Assembly: GCF_048403405.1 (NCBI RefSeq)
Contig: NZ_CP183129.1
DNA: 64,000 nucleotides
Strand: one strand, 5' to 3'
Source of the DNA: Escherichia coli
GTDB lineage: Bacteria > Pseudomonadota > Gammaproteobacteria > Enterobacterales > Enterobacteriaceae
Positions 46,201 to 64,000 of the stretch are shown in pieces; the first letter of the stretch is position 1, and each line of letters starts with the position of its first letter. The position numbers are program-made.

Positions 46201-49200
46201 GTAACTTTAGCGTTACGGGACAAAAAACGCTTTGACGGTGAAATTTTTGACCTGGACATCTCGCTGGACCGTGTTGAAGGTGCCGCGCTGGAGTTTTATG
46301 AGGAAGCAGCCAGAAGGAGCATCAGACAGGTCTTCCTGGATGTTGCTGCCGGGTTATGTGAAGGGGGTGAGCAGTCGCCGGAAAAGCGCCCCGTAATTTT
46401 AGAGGCGCAGAATGTGTGGATAACCTACAAAGGAAAGCTACCGGGAAGAATTACTGGTTCTCTGAAGACTCCACCGCTGGGCTGAAGACTTAACATATCC
46501 AGGTATTCGGAACCGATAAATCCTGATAAATATCCATGAACGCAAAAATCAGATACGGCCTGTCGGCTGCCGTTCTGGCGCTGATTGCCGCAGGTGCGCC
46601 TGCGCCTGACATTCTCGACCAGTTTCTGGATGAAAAGGAAGGCAACCACACCACGGCATACCGTGATGGTGCAGGTATCTGGACCATCTGCCGTGGTGCC
46701 ATCATGGTGGATGGCAAACCTGTCGTTCCGGGCATGAAGTTGTCGAAGGAAAAATGCGAACAGGTTAACGCCATTGAGCGTGATAAAGCGCTGGCGTGGG
46801 TGGAGAAAAACATCAGAGTGCCGCTGACCGAACCCCAGAAAGCGGGGATCGCGTCATTCTGTCCGTACAACATTGGCCCCGGTAAGTGTTTCCCGTCGAC
46901 GTTTTATAAGCGGCTGAATGCCGGTGATCGTAAGGGGGCATGCGAAGCGATTCGCTGGTGGATTAAGGATGGTGGGCGCGATTGCCGCATACGTTCAAAT
47001 AACTGCTATGGGCAAGTTATTCGTCGTGACCAGGAAAGCGCATTAGCCTGTTGGGGGATAGAGCAGTGAGCAGAGTCGCCGCGATTATTTATGCTCTGGT
47101 TATCTGCATCATCGTCTGCCTGTCGTGGGCGGTTAATCATTACCGTGATAACGCCATCACCTACAAAGAACAGCGTGATAAAAAAGTCAGTGAGCTGAAG
47201 CAGCTGACCGCCACCATCGCTGACATGCAGCAGCGTCAGCGTGATGTTGCTGCGCTCGATGCAAAATACTCGAGGGAATTAGCCGATGCGAGAGCTGAAA
47301 ATGAAACTCTTCGCGCTGACGTTGCCGCTGGTCGTAAGCGCCTGCGGATCAACGCCACCTGCCCCGGTACCGTGCGTGAAGCCACCGGCACCTCCGGCGT
47401 GGATAATGCAACCAGCCCCCGACTGGAAGACACCGCTGAACGGGATTATTTCACCCTCAGAGAGCGGCTGATGACGATGCAGATGCAACTGGAAGGGGCA
47501 CAGGAGTATATCCGCACTCAGTGCATTAAGTAGCCTTTTTATCGTGGTAAACATTTCGCAGGGTATGAGGTATTTATGCCATCACTAATCCCACGAGCCT
47601 GCCGTAAGCGTGGATGTGCAGGAACAACCACAGACAGTTCTGGTTACTGCGATAAACATCGTGGCGAAGGATGGGTACAGCATCAACGAGGACTGAGTCG
47701 CCACCAGCGTGGCTATGGTTCGAAATGGGATGCCATACGTGCGCGCATACTGAAGCGTGATAATCATCTGTGTCAGAACTGCCTGCGCAATGGGAGAGCC
47801 GTTGAAGCCAGAACTGTGGACCACATCATTCCGAAAGCTCATGGTGGCACGGATGCAGACAGTAACCTGCAGAGTCTGTGCTGGCCCTGTCATAAAGCAA
47901 AAACAGCGCGCGAACGCATCAATTGATAACAGCTCCCATCTGCAGGGGAGGGGCGGGTCAAATCTCTGCAACCCTGGCTGTTCAGTACCGCCGCCTGACC
48001 CTTCCTCACATCGCCGCAGGTTCGAAAACTTTTTTTTGGAAATGTGAACAAACGATTGATAGGTAAGACCGATTATGTCAGGACCTCCGAAAACCCCGCC
48101 ACGCCTGCATTTGATTCGAGGCAACCCCTCAAAGCGCCCCGTTAAAGACCACAAAAAAACCGCTAAAAAGGATGAAAAAGGTCTTCCTAAAATTCCGCAG
48201 CATTTAGGGGCTCAGGGGAAGTACTGGTTCAGGCGAATGGCGGAAGAGCTGAATGCGGAAGGGATCATTTCTCAGCTCGATGCACGTGCGCTCGAGTTAC
48301 TGGTGGAAGCCTACACCGAATACCGGCATCACTGCGAAATACTCGATGTTGAGGGTTATACCTACCGCACGAAAACGCAGAATGGCGATGTGCTGATCAA
48401 GGCACACCCGGCTGCTGCGATGAAGGCTGATGCCTGGAAGCGGATCCGGGCGATGCTTGCAGAATTTGGTATGTCACCGGCAAGCCGGGCAAAAGTAAAT
48501 ACCGCCGGACCGGATAATGTTGATCCGCTGGCAGAGCTTTTAAAAGCGAGAGACTGATGGCAAAAGTGGCTGACGGGATCCGCTACGCCGAACGTGTTGT
48601 TGCAGGAGAAATTGTTGCTGGCGAATTTGTCCGCCTGGCCTGCCAGCGTTTTCTTGATGATCTGAAGTACGGCGAAAAGCGGGGGATTTATTTCAGTGAA
48701 CCCCGTGCGCAGCACATCCTGAATTTCTACAAATTTGTGCCTCATGTAAAAGGGGCACTGGCAGGCCAGCCCATTGAGTTGATGGACTGGCATGTATTTA
48801 TCCTCATTAATATTTTTGGTTTTGTCATTCCGCTGGTCAATGAAGAAACCGGGGAAGTTGTCATGCGCAGCGATGGCAGCGGACGTCCGGTGATGGTGCG
48901 CCGGTTCCGGACGGCGTACAACGAAGTCGCCCGTAAAAACGCAAAATCAACCCTGTCATCGGGTATCGGCCTGTATATGACGGGGGCAGATAGTGAAGGC
49001 GGAGCTGAGGTGTATTCAGCCGCAACCACGCGTGACCAGGCCAGAATCGTGTTTGAAGACGCCAAAAATATGGTCAGAAAAGCCCGGTCGACACTCGGGC
49101 GGTTGTTTGATTTCAACAAGCTGGCGATTTACCAGGAGCAGAGCGCATCAAAATTTGAACCGCTTTCCTCGGATGCAAACAACCTGGACGGTCTGAACAT

Positions 49201-61200: not shown

Positions 61201-64000
61201 TCATCTGGCGGGGATTGAGATGCCGGATTTTCATCGCGGGGATGACTGGTGGCGTCACGGTCAGAATCTCTATCTGGATAATCTGGAGGCCACAGGGCTG
61301 TATCAGGTGCCGTTGTCAGCGGCGCAGCCGGGCGATGTGCTGCTGTGCTGTTTTGGTTCATCGGTGCCGAATCATGCCGCCATTTACTGTGGTGACGGCG
61401 AGCTGCTGCACCATATTCCTGAACAACTGAGCAAACGAGAGAGGTATACCGACAAATGGCAGCGACGCACACACTCCCTCTGGCGTCACCGGGCATGGCA
61501 CGCATCTGCCTTTACGGGGATTTGCAACGATTTGGCCGCCGCATCGACCTTCGTGTGAAAACGGGGGCCGAAGCCATCCGGGCGCTGGCCACACAGCTCC
61601 CGGCGTTTCGTCAGAAACTGAATGACGGCTGGTATCAGGTGCGCATTGCCGGGCGTGATGCAGGTGAAACCGAATTATCTGCCCGTCTTAATGAGCCGCT
61701 GGCAAATGGTGCCGTGATCCATATCGTGCCGCGTCTGGCGGGAGCTAAAAGTGGCGGTGTGTTTCAGGTGGTGCTGGGGGCGGCGTTGATTGCGGTGGCA
61801 TGGTGGAACCCTGTGGGCTGGCTGGGTGCCGCGGCTGTATCGGGCATGTATGCGGCAGGGGCCAGTATGATCCTGGGCGGTGTGGCGCAGATGCTGGCAC
61901 CGAAAGCCAGGACGTCCACGGCAGCCAGTACAGATAACGGCAAACAGAACACCTATTTTTCCTCACTGGATAACATGGTTGCTCAGGGCAATGTTTTGCC
62001 TGTTCTGTACGGTGAAATGCGTGTGGGGTCGCGGGTAGTTTCTCAGGAGATCAGCACGGCAGACGAAGGGGACGGTGGTCAGGTTGTGGTGATTGGTCGC
62101 TGATGCAAAATGTTTTATGTGAAACCGCCTCCGGGCGGTTTTGTCGTTTATGGAGCATGACGAATGGGTAAAGGCAGCAGTAAGGGGCATACCCCGCGCG
62201 AAGCGAAGGACAACCTGAAATCCACGCAGTTGCTGAGTGTGATTGATGCCATCAGTGAAGGGCCGATTGAAGGTCCGGTGGATGGATTAAAAAGCGTGCT
62301 GCTGAACAGTACGCCGGTGCTGGACACTGAGGGGAATACCAACATCTCCGGTGTCACGGTGGTGTTCCGGGCAGGTGAGCAGGAGCAGACTCCGCCGGAG
62401 GGATTTGAATCCTCCGGCTCCGAGACGGTGCTGGGTACGGAAGTGAAATATGACACGCCGATCACCCGGGCCATCACGTCGGCAAACATTGACCGACTGC
62501 GTTTTACCTTCGGCGTGCAGGCACTGGTGGAAACCACCTCAAAGGGGGACAGGAATCCGTCGGAAGTCCGCCTGCTGGTTCAGATACAACGTAACGGTGG
62601 CTGGGTGACGGAAAAAGACATCACCATTAAAGGCAAAACCACCTCACAGTATCTGGCCTCGGTGGTGGTGGGTAACCTGCCGCCGCGCCCGTTTAATATC
62701 CGGATGCGCAGGATGACGCCGGACAGCACCACAGACCAGCTGCAGAACAAAACGCTCTGGTCGTCATACACCGAAATCATCGATGTGAAACAGTGCTACC
62801 CGAACACGGCACTGGTCGGCGTGCAGGTGGACTCGGAGCAGTTCGGCAGCCAGCAGGTGAGCCGTAATTATCATCTTCGCGGGCGCATTCTGCAGGTGCC
62901 GTCGAACTATAACCCGCAGACGCGGCAATACAGCGGTATCTGGGACGGAACGTTTAAGCCAGCATACAGCAACAACATGGCATGGTGTCTGTGGGATATG
63001 CTGACCCACCCGCGCTACGGCATGGGGAAACGTCTTGGTGCGGCGGATGTGGATAAATGGGCGCTGTATGTCATCGGCCAGTACTGCGACCAGTCAGTGC
63101 CGGATGGCTTTGGTGGCACGGAGCCGCGCATCACCTGTAACGCTTACCTGACCACACAGCGCAAGGCGTGGGATGTGCTCAGTGATTTCTGCTCGGCGAT
63201 GCGCTGTATGCCGGTATGGAACGGGCAGACGCTGACGTTCGTGCAGGACCGACCGTCGGATAAGGTGTGGACCTATAACCGCAGTAATGTGGTGATGCCG
63301 GATGATGGCGCGCCGTTCCGCTACAGCTTCAGCGCCCTGAAGGACCGCCATAATGCCGTTGAGGTGAACTGGATTGACCCGGATAACGGCTGGGAGACGG
63401 CGACAGAGCTTGTGGAGGACACGCAGGCCATTGCCCGTTACGGTCGTAACGTCACGAAGATGGATGCCTTTGGCTGTACCAGTCGGGGGCAGGCACACCG
63501 CGCCGGGCTGTGGCTGATTAAAACAGAACTGCTGGAAACGCAGACCGTGGATTTCAGCGTCGGCGCAGAAGGGCTTCGCCATGTGCCGGGCGATGTCATT
63601 GAAATCTGTGATGATGACTATGCCGGTATCAGCACCGGTGGTCGCGTGCTGGCGGTGAACAGCCAGACCCGGACGCTGACGCTCGACCGTGAAATCATGC
63701 TGTCATCCTCCGGCACCACGCTGATAAGCCTGGTTGACGGAAGTGGGAATCCGGTCAGCGTGGAGGTCCAGTCCGTCACCGACGGCGTGAAGGTGAAAGT
63801 GAGCCGTATTCCTGACGGCGTTGCCGGATACAGCGTGTGGGGGCTGAAGCTGCCGACGCTGCGCCAGCGCCTGTTCCGCTGTGTGAGTATCCGGGAGAAC
63901 GATGACGGTGCGTATGCCATCACCGCCGTGCAGCATGTACCGGAAAAAGAGGCCATCGTGGATAACGGAGCGCACTTTGACGGCGACCAGAGCGGCACGG

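Follow-up and report, generated by a model that had tools for sequence, protein, structure and literature searches.

A mosaic lambdoid late operon with HK97-type packaging genes and a predicted cos site in Escherichia coli

The late operon and its prophage

The subject of this report is the block of late (virion) genes at the right-hand end of a 64,000-nucleotide (nt) stretch of Escherichia coli DNA (assembly GCF_048403405.1, contig NZ_CP183129.1), which at its full length is called the window throughout. From position 47576 to the window end, the genes form an unbroken series, all on the + strand according to an open reading frame (ORF) listing and Pfam scans, and the 20 ORFs from the HNH endonuclease gene to J are all intact and full length. 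Every gene has a Pfam assignment, with full-length matches at E-values from 1e-10 to 1e-100, and the PGAP annotation of an identical genome agrees with the gene calls. A first-pass annotation, made from the sequence alone, had given these genes a location and an order, and had described an HNH gene ahead of the small and large terminase genes, followed by portal, protease and HK97-fold capsid. Pfam confirms that arrangement and places the genes at or next to the coordinates proposed, 47576 being the HNH start codon. Considering the evidence set out below, the interval 47576-64000 is very probably the late operon of a lambdoid temperate siphophage of about 41.5 kb integrated in yecE, a phage that packages its DNA by the HK97 route and is a recombinant of at least five segments.

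The surrounding prophage is delimited in the chromosome of E. coli ECO_2_R (NZ_CP071002), to which window positions 40000-64000 are 100% identical. PGAP places the same genes there inside a prophage of about 41.5 kb in yecE, flanked by a DUF72-domain gene adjoining yecN on the integrase side and by yecD on the other; the integrase gene, from the PGAP annotation of this prophage, lies at window positions 29440-30753. The 16.4-kb virion block also occurs end to end, at 96.8-97.9% nt identity, in phages PhiR49_2 (PV340570, host ECOR13) and vB_EcoS-640R1 (ON470612), and several other phage records in the ON4705xx-ON4706xx series cover 76-92% of it. In these closest relatives the early regions differ. 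Within the block, PhiR49_2 differs in carrying an insertion of about 810 bp, with a reverse-strand ORF of 171 amino acids (aa), between the HNH gene and the cos box described below; the insertion, absent here, looks like an extra gene placed exactly at the HNH/cos boundary. The PhiR49_2 record (17743-18840) leaves unannotated an intact 116-aa HNH ORF at about 17743-18093.

A survey of 5426 complete E. coli genomes shows the HNH-cos-TerS segment in 922, the tape-measure/M/L junction in 1410, and the whole 24-kb combination in 65. Mosaic lambdoid prophages are a textbook case of phage modular evolution. The present block is already deposited and annotated, and nothing in it falls outside known lambdoid mosaicism and HK97-type packaging; its significance beyond annotation is slight.

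The HNH endonuclease and terminase genes

The operon opens with three packaging genes:

47576-47926, + strand: HNH endonuclease, 116 aa (Pfam PF01844, E=1.9e-16)
48075-48557, + strand: small terminase subunit TerS, P27 family, 160 aa (Pfam)
48557-50314, + strand: large terminase subunit TerL, 585 aa, with ATPase and nuclease domains (Pfam PF03354, PF20441)

The HNH protein carries an N-terminal zinc-ribbon-like segment (CxxxxC...CxxH) followed by the HNH core (CxxC...DH...N...CxxCH). The catalytic and zinc-binding motif is intact (CQNC...DH...N...CWPCH) and the Pfam HNH profile is covered from 1 to 47 of its 47 positions. The best match in the PDB is 5H0M (deposited as 'HNH endonuclease'), over the full length at E=6e-15. 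The closest of the reference homologues is L34 of the Stx2e phage phiP27 (90% aa identity), followed by SfV orf53 (74%) and HK97 gp74 (37%); gp74 differs in lacking the N-terminal zinc-ribbon-like segment, a segment that corresponds to the published zinc-ribbon classes (PMC3592412).

The terminase subunits have a different set of relatives. TerS scores in the Pfam/NCBIfam family of which phiP27 is the namesake, a family in which HK97 gp1 does not score, and is 73% identical to the TerS of mEp235; BLAST found no match to it in lambda, HK97, SfV or phiP27 itself. TerL is 38% identical to the phiP27 protein, 36% to that of SfV and 28% to HK97 gp2, and its only PDB sequence match is the HK97 TerL structure 6Z6D (E=1e-35). 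In grouping, TerL falls with the cos (cohesive-end) phages HK97 and SfI and not with the pac phages. BLAST against lambda matched neither Nu1 nor A to the terminase proteins of the block, and the Nu1/A packaging system of that phage is not the one used by this prophage. The gene order HNH-TerS-TerL-portal-protease-capsid, shared with HK97 (Byrnievirus HK97), is that of HK97-type cos packaging.

The cos region

The first-pass annotation had also pointed to a G+C-rich tract at 47930-48075, between the HNH and TerS genes, as a candidate cos site. These coordinates delimit exactly the intergenic tract, and the candidate stands up well by homology to the ends of HK97, SfI and phiP27. The base composition is another matter: the tract measures 52% G+C against 53% for the whole module, with only the first 81 bp being rich (63%) and the last 64 bp falling to 39%, and G+C richness was dropped as an independent signal. 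A search for direct or inverted repeats within the tract gave nothing significant. The elements recognized by alignment are as follows:

47945-47964, + strand: G-rich box GGGGAGGGGCGGGTCAAATC, with the cos core 22 nt downstream of it; on the HNH side of cos it may be a recognition element
47989-47998: predicted cohesive end, a 10-nt 3' overhang CGCCGCCTGA, with the top-strand cut after 47998 and the bottom-strand cut before 47989
48007-48039, + strand: candidate TerS-binding (cosB-like) element CACATCGCCGCAGGTTCGAAAACTTTTTTTTGG, spanning +9 to +41 relative to the cut and including a T8 tract (48030-48037)

A BLAST search with 47850-48150 retrieved the phiP27 record, which carries an annotated 10-bp 'cos-site', and several phage records that end nearby. 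The alignment comprised the window, phiP27, the end junctions of SfV, SfI and HK97, phages of Klebsiella, Morganella and Vibrio, and mEp235, and cos can be placed to the base because it includes phages whose DNA ends were mapped. The 10-nt cohesive end of SfI was determined by run-off sequencing of virion DNA in comparison with the prophage (PMC3636060), and the SfI record ends at that point; HK97 has 10-nt 3' overhangs (PMC11331095, PMC9410871). The phiP27 position rests on the GenBank annotation, and that of SfV on the SfI paper.

In this alignment the cos core reads (G/T)ACCGCC, and the ten bases starting at its second C fill the same columns as the reference ends of HK97, phiP27 and SfI. 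Aligned with CGCCGCCTGA are CGCCGCCAAA, at the right terminus of the HK97 record, TGCCCGCCCC, the SfI cos, and CGCCCGCCCC, annotated as cos in phiP27. Homology to these mapped or annotated ends thus predicts that the HNH-TerS tract holds cos, with its overhang at 47989-47998. The HNH gene ends 62 nt short of the predicted cohesive end and 148 nt short of TerS, which is on the same strand.

The G-rich box is common to HK97, SfV, SfI, ST64B, phiP27 and mEp235, as well as to the phages of Klebsiella, Morganella and Vibrio. It occurs only once in the window, where chance alone would give 0 occurrences. HK97 aligns with the window at the cos core (there GACCGCCGCC) and at the G-rich box upstream, and an A/T tract follows the cut in both. 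The phiP27 sequence is near-identical to that of the window through the box, the spacer and the first 8 nt of the cos core, and diverges from the last overhang bases onward. SfV and SfI share the cos architecture but have an element of a different class downstream of cos (ACCCGCGAAAAATG). The CACATCGCCGCAGGTTCGAAAACTTTTTTTTGG element is conserved in phages of E. coli, Klebsiella, Morganella and Vibrio, but only in those with this type of TerS. By analogy, HK97 TerS binds its site at +15 to +29 from the cut, where an A/T tract is required (PMC11331095).

The ends of database records proved to be unreliable guides to cos in this phage group. Those of SfV, SfII, SfIV, ST64B, mEp235, Fraca and Providencia phage PSTRCR_117lys were all considered, and none coincides with the predicted cut; the SfII record ends at the HNH stop codon and the mEp235 record starts at the TerS ATG, clearly arbitrary linearisations. 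A base-level prediction of cos is of some use here: the prophage family is widespread, and most of its records are linearised at arbitrary points. The first bases of the SfV record (TCCGGACTGCCCGCCCC) include the entire cos core, and the ST64B record, deposited as circular, retains box and core intact some 35-75 nt short of its end. The bases GGGGCGGG form a partial dyad with the reverse-complemented core; the match is exact in phiP27 and SfV but holds at only 6/8 positions here, and the dyad was set aside.

Head genes

The head genes follow TerL directly:

50311-50472, + strand: hydrophobic ORF, 53 aa (from translation), overlapping both the TerL and portal genes
50462-51688, + strand: portal protein, 408 aa (Pfam PF04860, E=1.5e-100)
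51681-52280, + strand: prohead serine protease, S78 (HK97 family; Pfam PF04586, E=1.9e-40; start codon according to PGAP)
52295-53512, + strand: major capsid protein, HK97 fold, 405 aa (Pfam PF05065, E=2e-70)
53532-53551, + strand: terminator-like hairpin with T-run after the capsid gene, where HK97 has an annotated terminator
53589-53906, + strand: gp6-like head-tail connector, 105 aa (Pfam PF05135)

These genes belong most closely with those of SfV. Amino acid identity to SfV is 83% for the portal protein, 81% for the protease and 69% for the capsid protein, compared with 28% to HK97 for the portal and, for the capsid, 24% across one third of the protein. The gp6-like connector is 49% identical to SfV orf6 and 43% to its phiP27 counterpart. 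In the PDB, the capsid protein matches 6TBA at 1e-21 and HK97 (1OHG) at 2e-4. Its Pfam domain begins at residue 126, leaving about 125 N-terminal residues as in HK97 gp5, which has an N-terminal delta (scaffolding) domain. The ORF listing and Pfam revealed no scaffold ORF between the protease and capsid genes.

The 53-aa ORF is 55% identical to an unannotated SfV frame at the same position, and in phiP27 its place is occupied by L37, a 'putative integral membrane protein'. It is strongly hydrophobic and looks like two transmembrane helices, which would put a putative membrane protein among the head genes.

Connectors and tail shaft

The next group of genes extends from the remaining connectors to the tape measure:

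53915-54253, + strand: head closure protein, gp7-like (Pfam PF05521; 65% identical to HK97 gp7)
54253-54699, + strand: gp10-like protein (Pfam PF04883; HK97 gp10, 80%)
54696-55040, + strand: tail completion protein, gp11-like (Pfam PF11367; HK97 gp11, 52%)
55061-55077: terminator-like hairpin before the tube gene, as in HK97
55100-55804, + strand: major tail (tube) protein with C-terminal Ig-like domain (Pfam Ig_2/Ig_3; HK97 gp12, 73%)
55819-56190, + strand, with a -1 frame extension to 56492: G-like and T-like tail assembly chaperones (Pfam PF06222, PF06223)
56539-59778, + strand: tape measure protein, 1079 aa (Pfam PF06120 (HK97 TLTM), PF20155, PF09718)

The G-like and T-like proteins are 64% and 63% identical to HK97 gp13 and gp14, and the tape measure is 56% identical to HK97 gp16 over its full length, whereas lambda H matches only its C-terminal 30%, at 26% identity. 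The tube protein scores 22.2 bits with Phage_TTP_11, under the curated cut-off of 28.4 bits for that family. From the gp7-like gene through T, tblastn at E<=1e-3 gave no match to lambda, including its FII, Z, U, V, G and T. Terminator-like hairpins stand in the same three places as in HK97, namely behind the capsid gene and ahead of the tube and tape measure genes. The connectors and tail shaft from 53915 to 59778 are HK97 alleles, not lambda alleles.

The two chaperone frames are probably joined by a programmed -1 frameshift, as in HK97. A slippery heptamer, A AAA AAG, lies at 56181-56187 in the X XXY YYZ phase, 3 nt before the G stop codon, and the -1 frame then stays open to 56492 and encodes the PF06223 T domain. 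The signal is present in the sequence; the event itself is a prediction.

M and the tail tip

Beyond the tape measure lie M and a block derived from lambda:

59771-60112, + strand: minor tail protein M (Pfam PF05939)
60092-64000, + strand: lambda-derived tail-tip block, with L at 60112-60810, K at 60815-61558, I at 61456-62103 and J from 62164

Similarity to lambda starts sharply at 60092, which is 20 nt ahead of the first codon of L, and continues as a single 3.9-kb blastn match to lambda 13409-17341 at 91.9% nt identity. The encoded proteins are correspondingly close to those of lambda (L 93%, K 91-96%, I 78%). The first 612 codons of J fall within the window and their product is 98% identical to lambda J; the complete protein, which continues past the window end, has 1232 aa and is 71% identical to lambda J overall, with a divergent C-terminal receptor-binding part. 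A profile of identity in 100-nt steps shows that gene I has a small mosaic patch at its middle, at about 61650-61920 (about 270 nt), where identity to lambda is 48-70% with a 21-nt indel; the flanking sequence is 91-99% lambda-like, and the patch is of non-lambda origin. M is a different case, at 40% identity to lambda M and 39% to HK97 gp17: it is a homologue from a third lineage, an orphan allele and not lambda's own.

Past the window end, after J and lom, the ECO_2_R record (39495-43219) has a side-tail-fibre region that is split into several pseudogenes and also holds a reverse-strand SAM-dependent methyltransferase gene.

A mosaic of at least five segments

The module boundaries were drawn by comparison with reference genomes of lambda, HK97, SfV and phiP27, using blastp, tblastn and blastn. 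Nucleotide similarity to SfV spans 47571-47968 and 50282-53499, and similarity to HK97 spans 53942-59616 at 65-76% identity. Recombination has assembled the block from five or more segments whose relatives are known. The first consists of the HNH gene and the left half of cos, resembling phiP27 and SfV; the second, of the right half of cos with TerS and TerL, resembling mEp235; the third, SfV-like, runs from portal to capsid, and the fourth, HK97-like, from the connectors to the tape measure; the fifth comprises the orphan M and then the lambda tip.

No single reference phage accounts for this arrangement. HK97 shares the overall layout, and its gp7 through gp16 are 52-80% identical to the proteins here, with matching terminator-like punctuation and -1 G/T frameshift; its head and packaging proteins are only 24-37% identical, its TerS belongs to a different Pfam family, and in M, L, K, I and J its identity to the window is no higher than 34-39%. 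The Shigella phages SfV and SfI combine an HK97-type head with a Mu-like contractile (myovirus) tail, and SfV, close as it is in the head genes, has a TerS without BLAST similarity and a distant TerL. The phiP27 tail is likewise contractile, and its portal and capsid proteins are only 25-29% identical to those here. As for lambda, everything upstream of L belongs to other lineages.

The first-pass annotation had read the module as a mosaic of an HK97-like head joined to a lambda-like tail, and had named pairwise identity to lambda and HK97 as the way to check this. The mosaic character was right, but the identity table resolves it more finely than into two parts. The head is HK97-like in fold and family; its closer relationship is to SfV/SfI, at 69-83% for portal, protease and capsid against 24-28% to HK97. 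Among the tail proteins said to resemble those of lambda, L, K, I and J are indeed close, while M is no closer to lambda than to HK97, and tblastn finds nothing here similar to lambda FII, Z, U, V, G or T. In the corrected module map, the lambda contribution is the L-K-I-J tip only.

Organization and exchange of cos halves

To place the cos region in a wider setting, IMG/VR was scanned with the pattern GGCGGGTCAAATC-N(18-30)-ACCGCC, which returned at least 120 loci; the counts that follow refer to the matches listed. Of the 120 listed, 117 have the core exactly 22 nt from the box, with 18-30 allowed by the pattern. An HNH homologue lies upstream on the same strand in every locus that has at least 400 nt of upstream flank (108/108). 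Loci with a TerS of the type found in the window have the CGCAGGTT...T-tract class of downstream DNA in 80 of 82 cases, the other two having a close variant, and all those with a TerS of the P27/SfV type (16/16) have the ACCCGCGAAA class. The class of downstream DNA tracks the TerS cluster in these loci. In addition, there are pairs of loci whose upstream halves are alike and whose downstream halves are unlike, and these part company either within the final two overhang bases or precisely where the cut falls (for example, L027/L053, L078/L060, L014/L040 and L070/L024).

Perhaps, then, cos in this group is a three-part structure: a box at a fixed distance of 22 nt upstream of the GACCGCC cleavage core that travels with the HNH gene, a 10-nt overhang, and a T-tract that travels with TerS, with recombination breakpoints at the last two bases of the overhang. 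We put this forward tentatively, from the comparison of sequences, and the odds are against it. If it were correct, HNH/TerL might use the box as a cosQ-like site, for recognition or termination, and packaging specificities would reassort by exchange at the cut site. Reassorting cos halves would also bear on predicting the satellites or cosmids that a given prophage could package.

No description of a fixed-spacing box combined with reassortment of cos halves was found in the searchable literature; a search with the box sequence GGGTCAAATC returned only unrelated primer sequences and is uninformative on earlier description. The literature on the DNA ends of PhiR49_2 or mEp235 yielded nothing useful. 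The putative combination is the only item in this analysis that may count as new, and mildly so.

Packaging route and alternative explanations

The gene complement and the cos homology suggest the following route. TerS would bind the A/T-tract element just downstream of cos, and TerL, aided by the adjacent HNH endonuclease, would cut concatemeric DNA at the GACCGCC-type core and leave the 10-nt 3' overhang predicted above. The DNA would then enter a shell made from the portal, S78 protease and HK97-fold capsid proteins; a separate scaffold gene is absent. HK97-type connectors, tube, -1 frameshifted G/GT chaperones and tape measure would build the tail shaft, and the lambda L-K-I-J tip would complete it. 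The exact cleavage positions, the roles given to the G-rich box and the T-tract element, and the capacity of the prophage to be induced today are what we infer from these likenesses.

Several observations weigh against this account. The T-tract lies at +32 to +39 from the cut here, compared with +24 to +30 in HK97, and the TerS-binding register may therefore differ. The SfV GenBank record (U82619.2) opens 19 nt upstream of the position at which SfI and HK97 have their cohesive end. The IMG/VR loci were chosen by the box-plus-core pattern, so that base conservation among them is built into the choice; independent of that pattern are the fixed spacing, the synteny with HNH, the co-variation with TerS and the agreement with mapped ends. 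Finally, the tail-fibre genes past the window are pseudogenes in the host record, which would allow for fibre-less particles or for no viable particles at all.

This last point leads to the strongest of the competing explanations, that the prophage is a decaying cryptic remnant which makes no particles, or else packages by a headful mechanism, with the 'cos site' being only a sequence relic. The pseudogenes of the host record also include a methyltransferase and some early genes. Nevertheless, this explanation is unlikely: each of the 20 ORFs (HNH to J) is full length, as is its Pfam match, deposited phages carry the same block at 97-98% identity, TerL groups with the cos phages HK97 and SfI, and the core and box are perfectly conserved.

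Somewhat less likely still is the proposal that the HNH gene is a free-standing selfish homing endonuclease without a packaging role, leaving TerL to cut cos by itself. HNH genes are often mobile; records in the ON4705xx-ON4706xx series call the homologue a 'homing endonuclease', and the 810-bp insertion in PhiR49_2 directly follows the HNH gene. It is difficult to reconcile such a gene with its constant position upstream of the box, on the same strand, at each of the 108 listed IMG/VR loci with enough flank, or with an ORF that stays intact even in PhiR49_2. Moreover, HNH genes commonly lie beside cos and terminase genes (PMC3592412), and HK97 gp74 stimulates cos cleavage in vitro (PMC9410871).

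The remaining and least probable alternative, in which HK97-like packaging and head genes are joined directly to a lambda-like tail by one joint at the head/tail boundary, can appeal to a gene order common to both phages, to the 78-98% lambda identity of L, K, I and J and to the Pfam labels Tape_meas_lam_C and Lambda_tail_I, but it is refuted by the identity table, in which V, G, T and H were tested against lambda and the HK97 homologues align better: the connectors, tube, G/T and tape measure are 52-80% HK97-like with no lambda match there, lambda nt similarity begins only at 60092, and the head genes are SfV-like.

Other features of the window

Several RNA features lie outside the virion block. 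In the early-right region of the prophage, isrK (39265-39341, Rfam 68.6 bits) and a C4 antisense RNA (39366-39453, 82.3 bits) stand back to back on the + strand within the 5' part of a Rha-family regulator gene (39211-40068). The pair may be a c4-type antisense immunity or anti-repressor control module in the style of P1/P7, located within a lambdoid prophage. Within 45230-45755 (+ strand), three prophage tRNA genes come after the Q antiterminator and a truncated DNA methyltransferase pseudogene; one has a CAT anticodon (Met according to ARAGORN, Ile according to PGAP), and the others are Arg-TCG and Arg-TCT. The small RNA STnc100 (133 bits) follows the tRNA genes at 45556-45755. In the chromosomal flank, Rfam identifies the small RNAs MicL (368 bits) at 22285-22592 (+ strand) and C0465 (104 bits) at 8949-9027 (- strand), both unrelated to the virion block.

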